The notes: generated by a model from the letters alone, not told the origin. A stretch of 64,000 nt of DNA from Bacteroidales bacterium (GCA_045615765.1 JAZLFM010000014.1:629-64628); one strand, 5' to 3'; positions 2,763 through 57,479 are shown, counted from the first letter of the stretch. Numbers and translations are program-made.

Positions 2763-4832
2763 ATGAAATATATAGTAAAATGTATAACAATTGTAGCATT
2801 GCTTTTTAGCGCATCGCTTACATTTGGACAAAATGTTGAGTTTATAAAAAAGAACTTTAACGACGACAAAGGATTAAAGAACGCTTTGCGAGATGTTGAC
2901 GAAGGAGATTCTTACCAAGAAATAGGAGATTACAAAACAGCATTGAATGCATACTTAAAAGCACAAGCATTCAACCCTAACAATGCAGACCTTAACTATA
3001 AAATAGGTAAATGTTATTGGATGATGAGCGACCCAGAATCCTCAATTCCATATTTCACAAAAGCTATAGAATTGGATCCTGTAAACTCTGGTTTTATTTA
3101 TGGTGTTCTTGGTCAAGCATACCAAGCAACATACAAATTCGAAGAAGCTATTAACGCATACCAAAAAGCTCGTGCACGTCTTACTGCCGACGAAAAGAAA
3201 ACGAAAGGAAACGATTTGGCAAAACATATTGATGAATGTAACAATGGTAAACGATTCCTTACAGACTCAGTACGCGTTTTCATAGATAACATGGGTTCTG
3301 CTATCAACTCTAAATATACAGACTACGCTCCTATTATTTCTGCAGACCAATCAATGTTGATTTTCACTTCTACACGCGAAAATCCATACAACAAAAAAGC
3401 ATTCGACGATGGCGAATACGATGAAAACCTATGGGTTTCATATAGAAAGGGAACTACTTGGTCACAAGCTGAAGACATGGGTGAACCTATCAATACTAAA
3501 GAAAACGATGCTACTATCGGTTTGTCTGCCGATGGTCAGAAACTATTCACTTTCTATGGAAAGAATGGTGGTGATATTAAATATTCAGAAAAGAAAGGTG
3601 ACACTTGGACAAAACCAGAACTTTTCAGTGCAATAAATACACCAAACGGACACGAAAACTCTGCCAGTTTCTCATTCGACGGCAAGACAATCTACTTCTC
3701 TAGCGACAATATAGAAAAAGTCACAAACTACGGAGAACACGATATCTTCATGTGCCAAATGAACGAAAAAGGCAAATGGGGAAAACCTGTAAACATTGGT
3801 CCAACAATTAATACAGACAAAGATGAAATTGGAGTTTTCATGCACCCAGACGGAAGAACTTTGATCTTTGCATCAAATGGACACAACACAATGGGTGGAT
3901 ATGACATTTTCAAGACAACTCTACAAGATGACGGAACTTGGTCAGAACCAGAAAACATGGGATACCCTATCAACACTCCTGGTGACGAAACATTCTTAGT
4001 AATGGATGGTAGTGGAACACATGCATATTACGCTTCTACAAGAAAAGGTGGTTATGGAGGTCTTGATATCTATATGATTACTTTCCTTGGTCCAGAAAAG
4101 AAACTTAACATGACAACAGAAAACAACCTAATCGCTGTGATGGCAAACCCTATCCAACAAGAAGTTGTTATGGAAAAATCTGTTGAAATCAAGACTGCCC
4201 GTTTGACAGTCGTAAAAGGTGTTGTTTCAGAAGCCTATACGGATCCTGCTAAATACTTAGATGCACAAATCGAAATCACAGATAACGCAACCGGTCAAGT
4301 ACTTTTCACAAACCAAGCAAACTCTGTTACAGGTAAATTCTTGCTTCCACTTCCATCAGGAAAGAACTATGGTATCGCTGTTAAGAAAGACGGATATTTG
4401 TTCCATTCAGAGAACTTTGATGTTCCACAAACAACAGATTACCAAGAAATATTCCTTGACATTAAGTTGATGCCAATGACAAAAGACGCAAAAATCGTAT
4501 TGCGTAACGTATTCTTCGACACTGACAAATCAACTCTAAAACCAATGTCTTACACTGAGTTGGATAAATTAGTTGAAATCTTGACAAAGAATCCTAAGAT
4601 GAACATTGAAATTGGTGGACACACCGACAATGTTGGTTCAAAAGCTTACAATCAAAAACTTTCTCAAGCTCGTGCAGAAGCCGTTGTTAACTATTTGATA
4701 TCTAAGAATATTGCACAAAATAGATTAACATTCAAAGGTTATGCATTCGACGAACCAATTGAATCAAACGACACACCAGAAGGACGTGCTCAAAACCGTC
4801 GTGTTGAATTTAAAATCTTAAGCAACGAATAA
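2763..4832 (+). CDS. OmpA-family envelope protein (TPR + PD40/TolB-like beta-propeller + OmpA C-terminal domain)
   Basis: 689 aa with a signal peptide. N-terminal TPRs, central PD40-like repeats (YFSS/YYAS..R.GGYGGLDIY), and a C-terminal peptidoglycan-binding OmpA motif (GGHTDNVGSKAYNQKLSQARAEAVVNYL...RAQNRRVEF). Confidence 0.85.
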   Translation: MKYIVKCITIVALLFSASLTFGQNVEFIKKNFNDDKGLKNALRDVDEGDSYQEIGDYKTALNAYLKAQAFNPNNADLNYKIGKCYWMMSDPESSIPYFTKAIELDPVNSGFIYGVLGQAYQATYKFEEAINAYQKARARLTADEKKTKGNDLAKHIDECNNGKRFLTDSVRVFIDNMGSAINSKYTDYAPIISADQSMLIFTSTRENPYNKKAFDDGEYDENLWVSYRKGTTWSQAEDMGEPINTKENDATIGLSADGQKLFTFYGKNGGDIKYSEKKGDTWTKPELFSAINTPNGHENSASFSFDGKTIYFSSDNIEKVTNYGEHDIFMCQMNEKGKWGKPVNIGPTINTDKDEIGVFMHPDGRTLIFASNGHNTMGGYDIFKTTLQDDGTWSEPENMGYPINTPGDETFLVMDGSGTHAYYASTRKGGYGGLDIYMITFLGPEKKLNMTTENNLIAVMANPIQQEVVMEKSVEIKTARLTVVKGVVSEAYTDPAKYLDAQIEITDNATGQVLFTNQANSVTGKFLLPLPSGKNYGIAVKKDGYLFHSENFDVPQTTDYQEIFLDIKLMPMTKDAKIVLRNVFFDTDKSTLKPMSYTELDKLVEILTKNPKMNIEIGGHTDNVGSKAYNQKLSQARAEAVVNYLISKNIAQNRLTFKGYAFDEPIESNDTPEGRAQNRRVEFKILSNE

Positions 4833-5052: not shown

Positions 5053-6654
5053 ATGGCAAATTTAGATTTGACAAAGTACGGAATTACAGGTGCAACTGTA
5101 ATCGCCCACAATCCTTCTTATGAAGAATTGTTCAAAGAAGAAACTAAAGCTGGACTAGAAGGCTTTGAAGTTGGTCAAAACACTGAACTACAAGCAGTGA
5201 ATGTAATGACAGGTATCTACACTGGTCGTTCTCCTAAAGACAAATACATTGTAATGGATGAAAATTCTAAAAACACTGTATGGTGGACAACTGAAGGTTA
5301 CAAAAACGACAACCACCCAATGTCAGAAGAAGTTTGGGCTACAGTAAAAGGTCTTGCAGTAAAAGAACTTTGCAACAAAAATCTTTATGTAGTTGATGCT
5401 TTCTGCGGTGCTAACAAAGATACTCGTATGGCTGTTCGCTTCATCGTTGAAGTAGCATGGCAAGCACACTTTGTAACAAACATGTTCATTAAGCCAACTG
5501 CTGAAGAACTTGCTAACTTTACACCTGATTTCGTTGTTTACAATGCTTCTAAAGCAAAAGTAACTAACTTCAAAGAATTAGGTTTGAACTCTGAAACTTG
5601 CGTTGCTTTCAACACAACTTCTAAAGAACAAGTTATCATCAACACATGGTACGGTGGTGAAATGAAGAAAGGTATGTTCTCAATGATGAACTACTATCTT
5701 CCACTTAAAGGTATCGCTTCTATGCACTGTTCTGCAAACTGCGATATGAACGGTGAAAACACTGCTATTTTCTTCGGTCTTTCAGGAACTGGTAAAACAA
5801 CTCTTTCTACAGATCCAAAACGTCGTCTTATCGGTGATGACGAACACGGATGGGATGATAACGGTGTATTCAACTTCGAAGGTGGTTGCTACGCAAAAGT
5901 TATCGGTCTTTCTAAAGAACACGAACCAGATATCTACGGTGCTATCAAACGTAACGCTCTTCTTGAAAACGTTACAGTTGATGCTAATGGTAAAATTGAT
6001 TTCAACGATAAATCAGTTACAGAAAACACTCGTGTTTCTTACCCAATCAACCACATCAACAACATTCAACCAGGATCATCTGCTCCAGCTGCTAAGAATG
6101 TAATCTTCTTGTCTGCTGATGCATTCGGAGTTCTTCCTCCAGTATCTATCTTGACTCCAGCTCAAACTCAATACTATTTCTTGAGTGGTTTCACTGCTAA
6201 ATTGGCTGGTACTGAAAGAGGTATTACTGAACCAACTCCAACATTCTCTGCATGTTTCGGTCAAGCTTTCTTGGAATTGCACCCAACAAAATATGCTGAA
6301 GAATTAGTTAAGAAAATGGAAAAATCAGGTGCTAAAGCTTACTTAGTAAACACTGGTTGGAACGGTACAGGAAAACGTATTTCTATTCCTGATACTCGTG
6401 GTATCATCGATGCTATTCTTGATGGTTCTATCCTTAAAGCTGAAACTAAGAAAATCCCTATGTTCGATTTCGAAGTACCAACAGCTCTTCCAAATGTAAA
6501 CCCAGCTATCCTTGACCCACGCGACACTTACGATTGCGCTTGCAAATGGGAAGAAAAAGCTAAAGACTTGGCTGGTCGTTTCATTAAGAACTTCGAAAAA
6601 TACACAACTAACGAAGCTGGTAAAGCTTTAGTTGCAGCAGGTCCAAAACTATAA
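5053..6654 (+). CDS. pckA: phosphoenolpyruvate carboxykinase (ATP)
   Basis: 533 aa. Kinase-1a P-loop [21 protein letters not shown], and PEPCK-ATP family length. Biased codon usage suggests high expression. Confidence 0.95.
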
Positions 6655-12033: not shown

Positions 12034-13779
12034 TTACCAATGTTTCACAACAGACTTAGCCGTATCACAAGAACGAATAATATAAGTTCCAGGAGCAATG
12101 TCTTTAACAGAAATCACTACTTTATCTGTTGAAATTGTATGATATGACACATGTGCAACAAGGCGACCATAAACATCATATACAGAAATTGGGCAAGCAG
12201 CAATTTGACGTCCTTCCACTACAAAAATATTCTCAGATTCAATTGCATAAGCTTTAAACAAATTGTTTCTCAAATTATTCCCGTGATTTACAGTCTTGAT
12301 ACTTGAATATGAGTAATCACCATCAAAATCGACTTGTTTCAATCGATAATACGAAATTCCATCAAGTGGTTCTTCATCTACAAACGAATAATAATGCATA
12401 GTGCTTGTTGTACCTGCACCGAAAAGAGAACCTATTCTTTCCCATCGCCTACCATCATACGAGCGTTCGATTTGGAACGTTTCGTTATTTTCCTCTGAAG
12501 AAGTACTCCATTCTAGCAACACAGAATTTTTCTCATTTTTTACCGTCCATGTTGCAATTTCTATAGATAACAAAACTGCCGGTTCGTTTTCTTTTAGAGT
12601 TAATTTTTTAAGACCATGAACTTCTACACCATTCCACCATGTATTCATCGTATTTTTATCACCAAACAAATCTATTGGGAACGGATGTCCACCACCTTCC
12701 GAACCTAAATAGCCACCTCTGCTTACATTTTCAATTCCCCTACAAGTTTTTTGTGCCGCAGTTTTTTGGATTAATTGAGAAAATTTCTTTACACCAACAG
12801 CTCCCTTTGCTAATGTTTTACAAACTCGTACTGTATTTCCATCTCCATTTTTAAAATCATAATATTTACTACACTTTCCGGTCCATGTCTCCCAATAATC
12901 TGTTTCCTTTGTTGTATATTCAGCAGATTTAATCACAGATTCTCCATATATATATTTTTTATCTGGAGATGTAGGCATTGTACATTCATTACCATAAGAT
13001 ATCAATCTATCATCCCAAAAAAGATTCAACTCTATACCGTATTCTTCTGAAAATCTATCTGTTTGATAATAATCCAAGGGAAGACTTTTATATCCATGTT
13101 CAGAATCTCGTAAAGAATCTTGAATCGGAGATATACGATACACTATCAATCCTTTTAATTCATCATTATATTTTATTTTCTCAGGATCATAAAAAGGAAA
13201 ATGAGTTACTCCTGAAGATTTCTGATAATCAACTGTCAAACTTCCAGTTACGCAATCTCCATTATCATATTTACCATCCCATGAAATATAGAAAGCTTCT
13301 GCATCACTATATAAACGACCAGCATTTTCGTTTCTCCACGTTCTACCCACACACATTGTCTCCAACAAACCGACACTACCATTAGCATCAAGATAACAAA
13401 CATCTGAATTTGCCGACACAAAATCAGATGCAAGAACTGCATCAAGCATAGGGAAACAACGCGTTCCGCTTGTTCCATCACTAATATCATCATAAAGATT
13501 TGTATTTGTTGTTGGGAATAATGTACCCAAATTCACACACGATATAATATCATTATCATCTAAAAGAGCCATTCCTCCTGCAATACCCGCCAAATACGAT
13601 TCCGCAACTATAGCACCACTATTATAACATTCTTTCAAATTAACCGAAGACGATACAGACCCAATTATTCCCCCCGCATTTTTTTCATCAGCAGCTATTT
13701 TTCCTTCATTTCTACATGCATAGAAACTATTTCCATCATCTTCTCCTACTATTCCGCCAACATTAGAGTAGGCAAACAT
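12034..13779 (-). CDS. C-terminal fragment of a frameshifted large T9SS surface protein (GLUG-like repeats, FN3-like domain, T9SS type A sorting domain)
   Basis: GGIVG/AGGIIG/AGIAGG repeats, an FN3-like module (LLEWSTSSEENNETFQIERSYDGRRWERIG...YYRLKQVDFDGDYSYS), and a C-terminal Por-secretion-tail-like end (APGTYIIRS....VVKHW). This reading frame stays open upstream to about 13929, reading NFWLYRGVVGYASDCEFSYCENF... Confidence 0.7.
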   Translation of the reverse strand: MFAYSNVGGIVGEDDGNSFYACRNEGKIAADEKNAGGIIGSVSSSVNLKECYNSGAIVAESYLAGIAGGMALLDDNDIISCVNLGTLFPTTNTNLYDDISDGTSGTRCFPMLDAVLASDFVSANSDVCYLDANGSVGLLETMCVGRTWRNENAGRLYSDAEAFYISWDGKYDNGDCVTGSLTVDYQKSSGVTHFPFYDPEKIKYNDELKGLIVYRISPIQDSLRDSEHGYKSLPLDYYQTDRFSEEYGIELNLFWDDRLISYGNECTMPTSPDKKYIYGESVIKSAEYTTKETDYWETWTGKCSKYYDFKNGDGNTVRVCKTLAKGAVGVKKFSQLIQKTAAQKTCRGIENVSRGGYLGSEGGGHPFPIDLFGDKNTMNTWWNGVEVHGLKKLTLKENEPAVLLSIEIATWTVKNEKNSVLLEWSTSSEENNETFQIERSYDGRRWERIGSLFGAGTTSTMHYYSFVDEEPLDGISYYRLKQVDFDGDYSYSSIKTVNHGNNLRNNLFKAYAIESENIFVVEGRQIAACPISVYDVYGRLVAHVSYHTISTDKVVISVKDIAPGTYIIRSCDTAKSVVKHW

Positions 13780-52876: not shown

Positions 52877-53761
52877 TTAATCCAAAAACTTTTTAATTGC
52901 TTTTTCTGTTTGAACAGGTAGAGCGGTTTTATAACAAGCATATTTTTGTACTCCCATTTCTGAACACCATTTTCCTAGAAACTCTTTCATTACATCAAAA
53001 TCACTTGGTCGTGACGAATTCGGGTTTAACTCAAGAAATAAAACCTTCGTATCATTAAGATCCTTTCTTGTTGCTATAAATCCTAAATCCTGTGTTGCAA
53101 TAATATCTAAACACTTTGTAGGATTATCTAAACCTTTACTTCGAATAAGATTAGGAAGCAAATATGAGTATCTGTTACCTTGTTGCATCACAGAACTTTG
53201 ATGATATATGTAACCATCGGTTACAACAATAAATATGTTATTATAATCATCATCTTTATATAAATCTATTTCATCTTTAAAAAATCTCCAAATATCACAA
53301 CCAACCCAAGAGTTAGATTGTATGCTCATATCATAAATCTTTCGTAATGAAGAAGTAAATATACTATCCATATTGTCGTAATAATACTTTTTGGTTTTAT
53401 TATCCATTGGACCTAAATCTACAACTAATGTTTTTGCGAGAGATGCGATTGTTGAATTTGATGGTGCTGGAGAAAATACTACTTGAATTTTTCCTTTTGC
53501 CATATAAGCGCCTTTTGCCCTCATATCCTCCTTAAAGTATTTTACGACATTAGACACTATTGCCAAATCTCTTTCTGTGTGATTTGGAGTATCTGTAGCT
53601 ATAATTCTATCTGATAAATCAAGCAAAATAGTAACATTAAGTTGTTTTGTTGATATTTCCACAGATTCCTCTGTACCTTTACCATTTCCATCTACTTCTG
53701 ATACACACGAAGAGAACAAAGAAATACCCAATGTTAAAAATGCAAATACTGTCTTTTTCAT
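52877..53761 (-). CDS. lipoprotein with a possible vWA-like/Rossmann-like domain
   Basis: Lipobox LFSSC. Beta-strand plus acidic motif VTILLDLSDRI and, later, IFIVVTDGYI, as in vWA domains. The MIDAS motif would be degenerate (DxSxR). Confidence 0.6.
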   Translation of the reverse strand: MKKTVFAFLTLGISLFSSCVSEVDGNGKGTEESVEISTKQLNVTILLDLSDRIIATDTPNHTERDLAIVSNVVKYFKEDMRAKGAYMAKGKIQVVFSPAPSNSTIASLAKTLVVDLGPMDNKTKKYYYDNMDSIFTSSLRKIYDMSIQSNSWVGCDIWRFFKDEIDLYKDDDYNNIFIVVTDGYIYHQSSVMQQGNRYSYLLPNLIRSKGLDNPTKCLDIIATQDLGFIATRKDLNDTKVLFLELNPNSSRPSDFDVMKEFLGKWCSEMGVQKYACYKTALPVQTEKAIKKFLD

Positions 53762-53769
53762 TTCAATAA

Positions 53770-55002
53770 TTATTTAGAAATCTCACCTATTGTATTTTGA
53801 CCTGTAAGCCTTATCTGTTCTTGTTCATTTTTTGCCTTGCCCACACCTGCCAAAAAATTCATCCAACCGGCCAAATAACTATTCAAACAATCGACTAAGA
53901 TATTTACAGGATAAACAACATAATTCAATTCATTTTCTTTTGCTTTTATCTCAATATTTTTTGTTTTGATTTCACTTTCAATCTTTTCTATGTCGTTTTT
54001 ATATTCATTACATTGTTTTTTCTTATACCGTATTTTTTCATCTAAATTATCTATTGCAACTTTTACAACATTCAACTTTGCATGTGCATCCATTACAAAA
54101 TCAAAAACAAAACCCCAGATTAAATAAACAACAAAACCAGAAAAAATAATAAGCCAAAATTCAGGACTCTGAAAAGCTATTTTGAAATCATATTCTGGCA
54201 TGATTTCAAAAGTACCATTTTTTACAAAATCATAAGCTTTTTTCTCAATAACATATGCAATAAGAACATCATACACAAAAGTAACGGCAACTAAGGAGCC
54301 TATTTTTATATATTTCGAGAAACCTTTCCCTTGACCAAACTTATATATTAGATAACCTAAACCCAAGAAAACAAAAGGGATACACATTATAAACAGTGCC
54401 TGTGTCCAACTTCCCGCCAATGCGTTTGGAACTGCATCAGGATCTAGTACCTTTGCTTGAAAGTTTAATTCATCATGACTTGTAAACACTCTAAACATTG
54501 CCGTATAAGTCGCAGAAGAATAAAAAAGCCATAGATATAATGTCATCGCCAATATTATTATAACTCCGATTCTAAATCCAACCTTATCAGTCGGATTTTC
54601 CACGATTAAAGTTGGATTATTTTTTATATTAGCAATTTCCGCCTTAGATTTTTCAATGTTTTCCTCCGCTAAATTTAAATCATTTACTATTTTTTCCTTT
54701 TTTATTTCAAGACCAGCTTTGTCCCCTTCCAGACTAACAATTTCATTTTTTATTCTAGTTCGCTCTCTTTCTTGAATTGCACTATCAGCAGCAAGTTCTG
54801 CTTGCAACTTTGCCTTTGCTGCATGTAAATTAGGAATTAACGCCGCTTCTGATCCTCCAACTTTTCCTGCATCAGAAAAGCCAAGCGATTTATAGTTTTG
54901 CTTACGAACAGAATTATCATCATTTACAGCACTATTAATCGATTGGTTCGTCTTATCTACTTTATCAACACCCAAAAGAGTTTTAAAAATCTTCAAATCC
55001 AT
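53770..55002 (-). CDS. membrane protein: N-terminal coiled coil, four TM helices, C-terminal coiled coil
   Basis: 410 aa. Heptad-rich segments at about residues 60-135 and 315-365. TM helices at IGVIIILAMTLYLWLF, ALFIMCIPFVFLGLGYLIY, IGSLVAVTFVYDVLIAYVI and FWLIIFSGFVVYLIWGFVF. Confidence 0.65.
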   Translation of the reverse strand: MDLKIFKTLLGVDKVDKTNQSINSAVNDDNSVRKQNYKSLGFSDAGKVGGSEAALIPNLHAAKAKLQAELAADSAIQERERTRIKNEIVSLEGDKAGLEIKKEKIVNDLNLAEENIEKSKAEIANIKNNPTLIVENPTDKVGFRIGVIIILAMTLYLWLFYSSATYTAMFRVFTSHDELNFQAKVLDPDAVPNALAGSWTQALFIMCIPFVFLGLGYLIYKFGQGKGFSKYIKIGSLVAVTFVYDVLIAYVIEKKAYDFVKNGTFEIMPEYDFKIAFQSPEFWLIIFSGFVVYLIWGFVFDFVMDAHAKLNVVKVAIDNLDEKIRYKKKQCNEYKNDIEKIESEIKTKNIEIKAKENELNYVVYPVNILVDCLNSYLAGWMNFLAGVGKAKNEQEQIRLTGQNTIGEISK

Positions 55003-55009
55003 AACTCTA

Positions 55010-55396
55010 CTATGCTAATTCATTTAACAATTGTTCTTCCGTTATGCCATTTTTTACACCTTCAAAAAGAAAATCTGCAATAGAATGAATATTCTCTGTT
55101 GGAAAACCCATTTTTGCACAAATAGATTCAACCATTCTTCTTTCTTCTTCTTGAATTTCACCATCTGCCCAAGCTAATTGAACCAAATCGTATAGCATAA
55201 TTACTTTTTCTTCTATAGTATCTGGCAAATAATTTGAACCACCAGGTTTCATAACTACAGCATTAATTTCTTCTGTTGTTACTCCTCTTTTTTTCCCTAT
55301 TTCATAAAGAACACTTAATTCTCGAGGATCAATTCTGCCATCAGCTAACATTAAAGCATAAATTCTTAAAAAATGTGCTTTTAACTTTTCATTCAT
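55010..55396 (-). CDS. TerB-like (tellurite-resistance TerB / DjlA N-terminal type) domain protein
   Basis: 128 aa. Paired acidic helix motifs LADGRIDPRELSVL and WADGEIQEEERRMV are typical of the TerB fold. Confidence 0.7.
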   Translation of the reverse strand: MNEKLKAHFLRIYALMLADGRIDPRELSVLYEIGKKRGVTTEEINAVVMKPGGSNYLPDTIEEKVIMLYDLVQLAWADGEIQEEERRMVESICAKMGFPTENIHSIADFLFEGVKNGITEEQLLNELA

Positions 55397-55413
55397 ACAT
55401 AAAATTTTTAATA

Positions 55414-55629
55414 TTATCTATACCATTCACAAACACCACGATGATGAGAACAAGTTCCTTGATGATTTTGACTATAACTATACGTTCCATCACAACAACG
55501 AGCTGTTGGACCTTGATATTTATACTCCATAACTTCACTTAATGATTCCCAAGTTGTTTCCTTTGGATTGCCTGCAAAATTTGCACATGACAACAGTAAC
55601 ATGGTCGCAAGGCTTAAAAATTTCTTCAT
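55414..55629 (-). CDS. small secreted/lipoprotein with a DUF3761-like Cys/His motif
   Basis: 71 aa. Signal with LLSC lipobox. C-terminal ARCCDGTYSYSQNHQGTCSHHRGVCEW matches the C.DG..S.S....G.CS.HGGV..W pattern I recall for DUF3761. Confidence 0.65.
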   Translation of the reverse strand: MKKFLSLATMLLLSCANFAGNPKETTWESLSEVMEYKYQGPTARCCDGTYSYSQNHQGTCSHHRGVCEWYR

Positions 55630-55664
55630 CTTTTTCTATATTTTTTGTTTTCACCTATGGGCAT

Positions 55665-55695
55665 AAAAAAAGCGTGAAACTTACCGTCTCCCGCT
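55665..55695 (-). terminator. intrinsic terminator at the 3' end of the structured leader, 35 nt upstream of the DUF3761-like ATG
   Basis: On the minus strand, AGCGGGAGAC-GGUAA-GUUUCACGCU (10 positions: 8 Watson-Crick, one G.U, one mismatch) is followed by U7. Confidence 0.7.
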
Positions 55696-55810
55696 CTATG
55701 AGGTGTTTGGCGTAACCTGAATACACGAAATAAGTAAAGCCCACGCCGTAGCATGAACATAGTCACTTATTTCTTTTGTATTCTATTATAGTCGCCAAAC
55801 TTTCATAGAG
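55694..55810 (-). ncRNA. candidate structured RNA (cis-regulatory leader or sRNA), class unknown
   Basis: Nested perfect helices: 55694-55701 with 55803-55810 (8 bp), 55706-55712 with 55793-55799 (7 bp), 55719-55725 with 55777-55783 (7 bp), and 55727-55735 with 55765-55773 (9 bp). No ORF. The strand is inferred from the adjoining minus-strand terminator. Confidence 0.45.
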
Positions 55811-55841
55811 AAAGAAATAAAGCTCAATGCTTCTAATATGT

Positions 55842-55876
55842 CAAAATCACATTTGTGATTCCTTTACAAATGTGAT
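55842..55876 (-). promoter_or_regulatory. imperfect -7 box (TGATTTTG) overlapped by an 11-bp perfect inverted repeat (possible operator)
   Basis: ATCACATTTGT-N9-ACAAATGTGAT at 55846-55856 and 55866-55876. TGATTTTG on the minus strand at 55842-55849. A TTTG lies 17 nt upstream on the minus strand. Confidence 0.35.
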
Positions 55877-55884
55877 AATTATTT

Positions 55885-55923
55885 TCAAAAAAAGCAAATC
55901 AATCCGAAGATCAATTTGCTTTC
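55885..55923 (-). terminator. rho-independent terminator after lysA
   Basis: On the minus strand, GCAAAUUGAUC-UUCG-GAUUGAUUUGC (11 bp including two G.U pairs, UUCG tetraloop) is followed by U7. Confidence 0.8.
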
Positions 55924-55947
55924 ATATTCTAACTATATGGTTTTCTA

Positions 55948-57207
55948 CTATTTAAAATCCTTTAAACCAGCAAAATCAAGAGTCGCAAATAAATCTTCAA
56001 CAGTTTCGGCGCGGCGAATCATTTTCACGCTACCATCTGTTCTTAACAACAATTCTGCAGAACGAAGTTTTCCATTGTAGTTGAAGCCCATTGCATGACC
56101 ATGAGCGCCTGCATCGTGGATTGCAATTATATCACCAACTTCAACTTCTGGCAATTCACGATGAATAGCAAACTTATCGTTGTTCTCACAAAGCGAACCT
56201 GTTACATCATAAACATGATCGCAAGGAGCATTTTCCTTACCAAGAACTGTAATATGATGATATGCGCCATACATACCAGGACGCATTAAGTTATTCATAC
56301 TAGCATCAACGCCAACATATTCACGGAAAGTATGTTTTAAGTGACGAACTGTTGTCACCAAATATCCATAAGGTCCTGTGATAAAACGACCTGACTCTAA
56401 GTATAATTTAACAGGAGCTAGACCATTTGGAACCAATATAGATTCATACTCTTTACGAATTCCTTCGCTGATTTTGAACACATCCAATTTCTTTTGTTCT
56501 GGGCGATATGGTATTCCCAATCCACCACCAAGGTTAATGAAATCGAACTTTATACCTAATTGTTTATTGATTTTCACAACAAGGTTGAAAAGTATTCGAG
56601 CTGTTTCAACGAAATATTCTTCATTCAATTCATTCGAAGCTACCATTGTATGAATACCAAAGCGTTTCACACCTTTATCCATCAACATTTTATATCCTTC
56701 GAACAATTGGTTTTCCATACAACCATATTTGGCTTCTTCAGGATTACCAATAATATCATTACCAGATTTTAAGCTACCTGGGTTATAACGGAAAGACACC
56801 AATTCTGGAATACCTGCACATTTTTCCAAGAAAGCAACATGCGAAATATCGTCAAGATTGATGATAGCACCCAATTCTTTTGCTTTCTTGAATTCGTAAT
56901 CGCCAGTATCGTTCGAAGTGAACATAATGTTTTCGCCAACATTGCCAACTTGTTCTGAAATTAATAGCTCAGGATAAGAACTACAATCACAGCCGAAACC
57001 ATGTTGAGCCAACAACTTTGCCAAATATGGATTTGGAGCAGCTTTTACTGCAAAATATTCATGAAAACCTTCATTCCAAGCAAATGCTTTTTTTAATTCT
57101 TCTGCATTTTCCAAAATTGCTTTTTCATCATAAATATGAAAAGGCGTTGGGAACTGTTTTATAATTTCTTGTATTTTTTCTTTTGAAAAAGGAAGTGTTT
57201 TTGCCAT
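55948..57207 (-). CDS. lysA: diaminopimelate decarboxylase (PLP-dependent, group IV decarboxylase fold)
   Basis: 419 aa from MAKTLPFSKEK. YFAVKAAPNP (PLP lysine), GGGLGIPY, ESGRFITGP and CENNDKF. The upstream 18 codons in the ORF track overlap the -7 box. Confidence 0.8.
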   Translation of the reverse strand: MAKTLPFSKEKIQEIIKQFPTPFHIYDEKAILENAEELKKAFAWNEGFHEYFAVKAAPNPYLAKLLAQHGFGCDCSSYPELLISEQVGNVGENIMFTSNDTGDYEFKKAKELGAIINLDDISHVAFLEKCAGIPELVSFRYNPGSLKSGNDIIGNPEEAKYGCMENQLFEGYKMLMDKGVKRFGIHTMVASNELNEEYFVETARILFNLVVKINKQLGIKFDFINLGGGLGIPYRPEQKKLDVFKISEGIRKEYESILVPNGLAPVKLYLESGRFITGPYGYLVTTVRHLKHTFREYVGVDASMNNLMRPGMYGAYHHITVLGKENAPCDHVYDVTGSLCENNDKFAIHRELPEVEVGDIIAIHDAGAHGHAMGFNYNGKLRSAELLLRTDGSVKMIRRAETVEDLFATLDFAGLKDFK

Positions 57208-57404: not shown

Positions 57405-57479
57405 CGGGGTATAGTACAGTCCGGTTAGTATGCTTGGTTTGGGACCAAGAGGTCGCAGGTTCGAATCCTGCTACCCCGA
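57405..57479 (+). tRNA. tRNA-Pro (anticodon TGG)
   Basis: Hand-folded cloverleaf. Acceptor CGGGGTA/TACCCCG, anticodon stem CTTGG/CCAAG with loop TTTGGGA, T arm GCAGG-TTCGAAT-CCTGC, 5-nt variable loop, discriminator A. No encoded CCA. Confidence 0.95.

Follow-up and report, generated by a model that had tools for sequence, protein, structure and literature searches.

In a Bacteroidales bacterium (GCA_045615765.1, JAZLFM010000014.1:629-64628; the whole stretch of 64,000 nucleotides analysed here, with a G+C content of ~36%, is referred to as the window), the 318-nt intergenic gap between a decarboxylase gene and the gene for a DUF3761 lipoprotein holds a structured RNA leader on the minus strand. 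The leader belongs to an RNA class that strong covariation across 40 distinct members supports well, and these members head genes for lipoproteins, BspA-like, MORN-repeat and TerB-like proteins, cargo of the type IX secretion system (T9SS) and defence-like proteins. The family was previously uncatalogued, and most likely represents a known general kind, that of structured attenuating leaders. Whatever the type of effector, the leader is likely to act in cis as a transcription attenuator of the operon that follows, which encodes the DUF3761 lipoprotein, a TerB-like protein, a membrane protein and a second lipoprotein. The chances are about even that the outcome depends on a factor that recognises the RNA.

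With regard to the fold (coordinates in Table 1, read on the minus strand), the original prediction had described four nested, perfectly complementary helices, and all four were recovered at their positions. The second helix measures 8 bp and not the 7 bp counted earlier, so that the lengths are 8, 8, 7 and 9 bp. The apical region of 29 nt (55764-55736) has the expected length and position, but it is not an open loop, as it forms a hairpin of its own, P5, the innermost helix of the rod P1-P5. The structured unit is likewise present, but the conserved unit is larger and adds the 5' hairpin P0 and an invariant pyrimidine tract. The predicted terminator hairpin with its run of seven uridines was found on the minus strand, and the gap from the last U to the ATG (55629) is indeed 35 nt. 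This hairpin comprises nine pairs, including one G.U, plus one G.A mismatch, with a free energy of -10.1 kcal/mol (z = -4.2), and it overlaps P1 by two bases, which end P1 and open the hairpin. A stable hairpin followed by a U-run on the transcribed strand corresponds to a predicted intrinsic (Rho-independent) terminator. When both strands of the region 55655-55850 were folded, the minus strand was much more stable than its shuffles, with -69.1 kcal/mol (z = -8.0) and 0 of 200 shuffled sequences equally good, and the plus strand reached -52.6 kcal/mol (z = -5.9).

Relatives of the leader were gathered by two pattern scans and one protein-based lookup, which together gave 44 matches, 40 of them distinct, in Bacteroidales genomes and metagenomes of rumen, horse-gut and bovine origin. 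The first scan, which covered species-representative genomes with the terminator as the pattern, returned 28 loci, namely 27 family members and one chance match in Stenotrophomonas. These members all come from Bacteroidales genomes recovered from rumen, yak, buffalo, sheep, horse or gut metagenomes, labelled as Salinivirgaceae, Paludibacteraceae or Bacteroidales, and four of the genomes hold two diverged copies each, at different loci. The second scan, on JGI (Joint Genome Institute) metagenomes with a core pattern that left out the terminator, found 19 further loci, and the full element, terminator included, was present in 19/19. The lookup led to a relative, L002, whose leader lies directly before the gene of a TerB-like protein. 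This leader is ~95% identical to that of the window in DNA, compared with 80% identity for the adjacent TerB-like protein, and its differences all fall in loops or preserve pairing (A-U to G.U, U.G to U-A and G.U to A-U).

Identity among close strains is less informative. Four strains of the same species (L001, L004, L005 and L007) carry an identical leader within a 1.1-kb block of 100% identity (~54800-55900) that has diverged flanks and, because the leader lies inside this recombination block, its identity there carries no selection signal. In gut-metagenome assemblies, several contigs per sample match only ~55665-55854 and then diverge, and some of them carry four double substitutions in the outer helix. 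Conservation across the family starts near the RNA start and stops no more than a few nucleotides from the U-run. Judged by the exact-pattern scans, the family is restricted to uncultured rumen and hindgut Bacteroidales.

Every member, when folded singly, adopts the same architecture, composed of P0, the pyrimidine tract, the rod P1-P5 and the terminator, in a unit of ~175 nt whose rod helices are separated by conserved internal loops. Plain MAFFT misaligned the variable helices P1 and P3, and two other alignments were used instead: a hand-made, N-padded structural alignment of 26 distinct sequences, based on the pairing partners in the minimum free energy (MFE) fold of each sequence, and a covariance-model alignment of the 44 matches. 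In the hand-made and the model alignment, 96.1% and 95.0% of the cells are paired, respectively, as opposed to 35-49% and 38-49% when the partners are slid. Changes on both sides affect 20 pairs (148 cells) in the former and 19 pairs (212 cells) in the latter. The covariation scores are 0.393 and 0.356, against 0.04-0.07 for slid partners in both cases, and none of 500 shuffles of either alignment reached the observed score. The helices proposed from the single sequence are therefore far better than shuffled and slid controls, and their conservation and covariation in relatives are strong across the 40 distinct sequences.

The shared architecture has P0 (AAGC/GCUU), P2 (UUUGGCG/CGCCAAA), P4 (GAAAUAAG/CUUAUUUC) and P5 (CACGC/GCGUG), and P1 and P3 are variable. 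Pairs that change on both sides number six or seven in P1, five or six in P3 and three to six in P2, and up to five pair types occur per position in P1 and P3. In P4 and P5, all variation is of the A-U/G.U and C-G/U.G kind and confined to the 5' strand, which leaves the 3' strand of the rod almost invariant. One pair of P0 changes on both sides across the family (A-U to U-A or C-G), and the internal loops contain invariant nucleotides, e.g. GGuUa, aCCu and CUUnA. The terminator covaries as well: one G.U pair is replaced by U-A in five distinct sequences and by A-U in two, and two pairs change on both sides in the model alignment; its G.A mismatch is kept in 39 of the 40 sequences. The RNA is assigned to the gene strand because its G.U pairs are strand-specific and because the covariance model, R1, scores 164.7 bits on the minus strand and 16.6 bits on the plus strand at this locus. 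A leader peptide encoded within the rod was considered and rejected, as the AUG in P1 of the window is not conserved.

Two further observations concern the apical part of the rod. The P4 strand CUUAUUUC contains a TTNTTT-type motif, and a rule-based terminator scan flagged P5 followed by UUUACUUAUU as terminator-like. Motifs of the TTNTTT type are linked to NusG-dependent pausing in Bacillus and, by analogy, the one near P5 may be a pause site within the leader.

The position of the element is constant, too. In the ~39 loci that were read, a co-directional open reading frame (ORF) begins 12-174 nt (typically 30-100 nt) past the U-run, with the single exception of L050, where only a degraded gene remnant remains downstream. 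The family thus combines a covariation-supported conserved structure with a constant co-directional position upstream of an ORF, as structured cis-regulatory leaders do.

No catalogued RNA family accounts for the leader. The only Rfam 15 match at gathering score in the whole window is a tRNA (57405-57479), in agreement with the original statement that the element could not be matched to a known riboswitch class. Within 55400-56100, a search at E <= 10 returned only chance-level matches, all far below gathering scores, and the leader did not qualify as a member of the Rfam riboswitches, leaders, small RNAs (sRNAs), 6S RNA, T-box or signal recognition particle (SRP) RNA. BLAST of the gap against the 64-kb window gave no second copy, and the leader is the sole match to model R1 there. 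Viral contigs contained 0 matches, and an association with phages or viruses was rejected on this basis. Neither a mobile-element end nor a known RNA family was thus matched in Rfam, in the repeat search of the window or among viral contigs, and searches of a limited literature library found no description of the motif. The covariation, the negative Rfam result and the controls support the earlier proposal of a structured leader of the riboswitch, attenuator or sRNA type that lies outside the known classes.

In the mechanism that we propose, transcription would start near 55860, ~6 nt past the -7 box CACAUUUG, and the nascent RNA would fold in turn into a short 5' hairpin, P0 and the long rod P1-P5. 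The pyrimidine tract 5' of P1 could pair with GGGAGA in the 5' arm of the terminator, which would lengthen the rod and block the terminator. RNA polymerase would then either stop at 55665 or read into the operon, and this decision is probably taken during transcription, since the two conformers are nearly iso-energetic. The partner that decides would read the side of the rod that is conserved and invariant. It seems more likely to be a protein or another macromolecule than a metabolite, given the unbranched shape of the rod and the lack of a common pathway among the controlled genes.

The folding energies are compatible with such a switch. In the MFE fold of the window sequence, the pyrimidine tract pairs with GGGAGA in a helix stacked on P1, and the 5' region pairs with the 3' arm of the terminator. 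Among 39 members, the energy gap between the best fold with the terminator and the best fold that blocks it ranges from -2.8 to +7.3 kcal/mol, with a mean of 2.4, and the rod conformer is favoured at equilibrium in 33 of them; near-equal energies of this kind would be expected of an expression platform. The helix between the tract and GGGAGA is paired in 92.6% of the cells, and it is the thermodynamically favoured alternative to the antiterminator put forward in the original prediction, in which the apical GGCGUGGG (the 3' arm of P5) pairs with the 3' arm of the terminator. Both segments of that earlier pairing are invariant and carry no covariation information. Selection for an alternative pairing between P0 and the U-tract is argued against by the covariation of P0 as a local hairpin. 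The 5' linker (ACAU or ACAAU) and the bases after the U-run (AUGU or AUUGU) could pair over a long range, at an average of -3.5 kcal/mol in cognate and -3.1 kcal/mol in non-cognate combinations, a difference that is inseparable from subfamily ancestry. Taken together, the structure, the terminator, the fixed position and the several diverged copies fit a cis leader that governs a dispersed regulon.

Several observations weigh against attenuation by this route. No compensatory change is seen in the pairing between the tract and GGGAGA, which lacks one of its pairs in 11 of 37 distinct sequences (the L046 group among them), and its high percentage of paired cells is weak evidence because pyrimidine and purine tracts pair almost by default. 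The terminator sequence is conserved as strongly as the rod, and terminator conservation is commoner for sRNAs than for riboswitch expression platforms. Furthermore, the rule-based terminator scan missed the terminator hairpin of the leader, because the internal G.A mismatch breaks its rule. The RNA data consist of two bovine gut metatranscriptome runs (X44 and X45, at L032:4139-4306) with short, low-depth contigs only, and three host-labelled RNA runs yielded no reads. The contigs cover leaders of this family alone, and one of them, from an L022-type locus, starts 3 nt past the TTTG of the upstream box. Additionally, both alignments are biased towards structure, one through its MFE-derived partners and the other through fitting to the model. 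The number of pair types at fully paired positions nevertheless far exceeds what fitting creates.

The alternative that survives best, although it seems rather unlikely, is a riboswitch for a small molecule or ion, in which the rod would serve as the aptamer and the ligand would stabilise P1 and its extension, or do the opposite, and so switch the terminator. The order of aptamer-like domain, terminator and ORF is kept across members, the internal loops are invariant, P1 adjoins the terminator with conformers of nearly equal energy, and the several copies per genome resemble a regulon. Terminator-coupled and orphan riboswitches of the Rfam or CMfinder type similarly have a covarying 5' leader domain, a P1 that abuts the terminator, competing pairings of the kind proposed here and a motif that precedes several operons per genome. 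However, the present family is an unbranched rod without a multi-helix junction or pseudoknot signal, its conservation is concentrated on one strand of the helices and not in a pocket-like junction, its terminator sequence is conserved, and it matches no known class in Rfam 15. The genes downstream share neither a pathway nor a transporter theme, and this heterogeneity argues against a metabolite-specific riboswitch. T-box leaders offer a comparable picture, with a long rod-like helix, conserved internal loops, mutually exclusive terminator and antiterminator pairings such as those proposed here, and many different genes preceded per genome, but the leader described here lacks the T-box sequence, the specifier-loop architecture and an Rfam T-box match, and no aminoacyl-tRNA or amino-acid genes follow it.

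A stand-alone or dual-function sRNA is less probable still. Here, a terminated transcript of ~175-195 nt would act in trans, and the downstream genes would be expressed by leak-through or independently. Conservation that runs from near the RNA start to within a few nucleotides of the U-run, a terminator sequence as conserved as that of many sRNAs, a multicopy family and metatranscriptome contigs that span the leader alone would all suit an sRNA, and multicopy sRNA families such as FopS exist in Bacteroidales (PMC11697453). On the other hand, the ends of those contigs fall at locus-shared sequence, where assembly graphs break, and are uninformative on RNA 3' ends. Almost all of the rod is paired, no single-stranded seed is obvious, and the co-directional ORF that usually follows 30-100 nt past the U-run (degraded in L050) leaves little room for a promoter. 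The FopS and GibS sRNAs of Bacteroides are likewise paralogous multicopy non-coding RNAs tied to cell-surface control, but FopS RNAs, found in Bacteroidaceae and mostly at intergenic or antisense positions, are ~65-70 nt long with a single-stranded 5' seed (PMC11697453), whereas the members of this family are ~175 nt long, almost fully paired and located directly upstream of a co-directional ORF. 6S RNA resembles the leader as a rod-like molecule of ~180 nt with internal loops; it differs from this family, whose genomes carry more than one diverged copy, whose rod lacks a large central bubble and whose members are always followed by a terminator and an ORF, and no Rfam 6S or Bacteroidales-1 match was obtained in 55400-56100.

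We consider it improbable, even more so than an sRNA, that the element is a constitutive module of the 5' untranslated region (UTR) without a switch, which would stabilise or help to process the mRNA, or shield acquired genes from transcription that enters from upstream. Such a role would accommodate the heterogeneous, accessory-type genes downstream, the 5'-proximal hairpin, which is typical of stabilisers, and the extended rod favoured at equilibrium in 33 of the 39 members. A conserved, covarying terminator with a perfect U-run in front of an ORF would be counter-productive without regulation, however, and the family-wide retention of nearly iso-energetic alternatives and the invariant loop nucleotides, which suggest recognition by a partner, also speak against it. 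A DNA-level repeat (MITE/REP-like, i.e. of the miniature inverted-repeat transposable element or repetitive extragenic palindrome kind) or a mobile-element end without RNA function is barely credible: the element is a long imperfect inverted repeat whose plus strand also folds well (z = -5.9), and some genomes hold several loci, but the 64-kb window has one copy, copies within a genome differ by compensatory changes instead of being near-identical, the G.U pairs hold on a single strand, the element always points the same way relative to the next gene, viral contigs contain no match, and the alignments, in which no dedicated search was made, revealed neither terminal inverted repeats nor target-site duplications.

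Under the preferred reading, a cis-acting attenuator, the closest parallels in logic are systems in which the fate of RNA polymerase is decided in the leader. In Bacteroides, opsX is an element of ~40 bp with a non-template hairpin motif, YGCGNAGCR, and the first genes of the operons encode UpxY and UpxZ (PMC11685472). In Bacillus, a nascent RNA hairpin has been proposed to aid recognition by LoaP, a specialised NusG paralogue (PMC12691694). As may hold for the family described here, both act in leaders of surface-structure or accessory operons with an antitermination logic, and a nascent hairpin takes part in recognition (as proposed for LoaP, and as the pause hairpin in opsX). UpxY, likewise a specialised NusG paralogue, is itself a Bacteroidales system. 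The family differs from opsX in being a conserved RNA of 175 nt with its own terminator. The YGCGNAGCR motif has 7 matches in the window, none of them within 55600-55950, and no NusG-like gene follows the leader, the first gene being that of the DUF3761 lipoprotein. The identity of the leader as a UpxY/opsX leader was rejected on these grounds.

Tentatively, the rod might be a dedicated RNA receptor for a cellular signal, either a specialised elongation or antitermination factor that is recruited via the nascent RNA or a small ligand, that coordinates a dispersed regulon of accessory genes. If so, it would be an RNA-based counterpart to control of the ops/RfaH or UpxY type, with which Bacteroidales of the rumen and hindgut would turn on, together, accessory genes of surface, secreted and defence types that are otherwise unrelated. 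The structured leader RNAs described so far stem mostly from cultured Firmicutes and Proteobacteria. To our knowledge, Bacteroidota largely lack Shine-Dalgarno-based control, Hfq and ProQ, and few RNA switches have been characterised in them. A conditional attenuator would define a regulon of envelope genes of unknown function in major fibre-degrading gut bacteria, and the leader would provide a handle for finding the controlling signal. The invariant 3' strand and the conserved terminator with its fixed G.A mismatch are unusual for riboswitch platforms, and point to an undescribed recognition mechanism.

The placement of the promoter-like region upstream of the leader has to be revised. A candidate -7 box of the TAnnTTTG type is present, but it reads CACAUUUG and not TGATTTTG, and transcription probably starts at the distance from it given above. 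Most relatives of the same subgroup have perfect TAnnTTTG boxes at this position (TATATTTG, TACCTTTG, TATCTTTG and TACATTTG), 39-56 nt upstream of P0, and the window and its two closest relatives have CACATTTG instead. The candidate -33 TTTG sits within the terminator tail of the upstream decarboxylase gene. Across subgroups, the sequence upstream of P0 is not conserved. Relatives hold a hairpin at the 5'-proximal position, with differing sequences (CGCA/UGCG, AUUGCA/UGCAAU, UCUUC/GAAGA). A perfect 11-bp inverted repeat (55846-55876) has one arm that includes the likely -7 box and another in the 5'-proximal hairpin. It is more likely to represent a -7 box and a 5'-terminal RNA hairpin than an operator, because relatives conserve the hairpin in structure and not in sequence. 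In one subgroup (L013, L017, L045 and L009), P0 is separated from the closest TAnnTTTG box upstream (TATCTTTG) by 106-115 nt, and this box is followed by a further conserved stretch (GAAACUAAUUGAUGCC...), which suggests a longer leader with an extra 5' domain.

The genes downstream of the leader, read in relatives by three-frame translation with stops written as X, are strikingly diverse across the family. They encode lipoproteins and small membrane proteins without a Pfam family, BspA-type leucine-rich-repeat (LRR), DUF3836 and MORN-variant repeat proteins, T9SS cargo and a membrane-anchored arginine-deiminase-like protein. TerB-like proteins are found downstream in the window, L002 and L019. 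There are also a few cytoplasmic defence-like genes, among them, in L011, a DNA methyltransferase gene (identified by motif only) that follows a diverged leader copy, as well as genes for candidate DUF262-type and PLD-type proteins assigned by eye.

Two relatives carry more than one copy on a contig. The Paludibacteraceae contig L011 has two members 2.5 kb apart on opposite strands (6030-6198, plus; 3386-3563, minus), the second of which is diverged (57.7 bits), has a weak, different terminator and precedes the gene of a 561-aa DNA methyltransferase with a DPPY motif. In L046, identical leader copies (2533-2708 and 13279-13454) lie 10.7 kb apart and are followed by the same three small genes, which reflects either a large tandem duplication or an assembly repeat.

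At the locus in the window, the genes flanking the leader all lie on the minus strand, according to ORF calls and Pfam matches (Table 1). The decarboxylase gene has a separate terminator, and the leader is therefore a transcription unit of its own.

Table 1. Features of the leader and its neighbourhood, with coordinates as positions in the window
Feature	Position	Strand	Basis or remark
PLP (pyridoxal phosphate)-dependent Orn/DAP/Arg (ornithine/diaminopimelate/arginine)-type decarboxylase, upstream gene	57261-55948	minus	ORF and Pfam
Terminator hairpin of the decarboxylase gene	55922-55887	minus	inverted repeat I2, then U-run
Candidate -33 TTTG, inferred Bacteroidota sigma-A-type promoter	55898-55895	minus	20 nt upstream of the -7 box
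Candidate -7 box CACATTTG (consensus TAnnTTTG)	55874-55867	minus	position shared with subgroup relatives
5'-proximal hairpin AAUCACAAAUGUGAUU, at the probable RNA 5' end or close to it	55860-55845	minus	-4.1 kcal/mol, z = -4.9
Conserved family core (P0, pyrimidine tract, rod, terminator)	55838-55664	minus	covariance model R1, 164.7 bits
P0 hairpin AAGC-AUUGA-GCUU	55832-55820	minus	93-95% of cells paired
Pyrimidine tract UAUUUCUUU, candidate anti-terminator strand	55819-55811	minus	family consensus UUyuuUcU, nearly invariant
Rod P1-P5, five nested helices	55810-55694	minus	folding and covariation
P1, CUCUAUGA / UCAUAGAG	55810-55803 / 55701-55694	minus	8 bp
P2, GUUUGGCG / CGCCAAAC	55800-55793 / 55712-55705	minus	8 bp
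P3, GAAUACA / UGUAUUC	55783-55777 / 55725-55719	minus	7 bp
P4, GAAAUAAGU / ACUUAUUUC	55773-55765 / 55735-55727	minus	9 bp
P5, apical hairpin	55758-55739	minus	8 bp including three G.U pairs
Intrinsic terminator AGCGGGAGAC-GGUAA-GUUUCACGCU and U7	55695-55665	minus	hairpin 55695-55671, U7 55671-55665
Downstream operon, four tightly packed genes	55629-52877	minus	ORFs and Pfam matches
DUF3761 lipoprotein, operon gene 1	55629-55414	minus	ORF/Pfam
TerB-like protein, operon gene 2	55396-55010	minus	ORF/Pfam
410-aa membrane/coiled-coil protein, operon gene 3	55002-53770	minus	ORF/Pfam
294-aa lipoprotein, operon gene 4	53761-52877	minus	ORF/Pfam

Immediately 3' of the U-run lies a 12-codon ORF (AUGCCCAUAGGUGAA...AGAUGA; 55626-55664), the stop codon of which overlaps the DUF3761 start (AUGA). 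The bases that follow the U-run, AU(U)GYC, are kept in many relatives, but the AUG itself is not, being AUUG in about a third of them, and the ORF is probably part of the terminator context and not a leader peptide. The DUF3761 gene is dispensable and polymorphic: L002 lacks it and has the TerB-like gene right behind the leader, and in two same-species strains (L004 and L005:2769-3008) a one-base deletion (CATCAAGG to CATC-AGG) alters the 3' end of this gene, which then overlaps the start of the TerB-like gene. With regard to the 410-aa gene, its centre (53900-54800) shows 18-44 differences per 100 bases from the strain contig L001, compared with flanks (54800-55900 and 53500-53900) that are 99-100% identical to it. 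Judging by this comparison, the variable centre is a mosaic or hypervariable cassette within an otherwise identical block.

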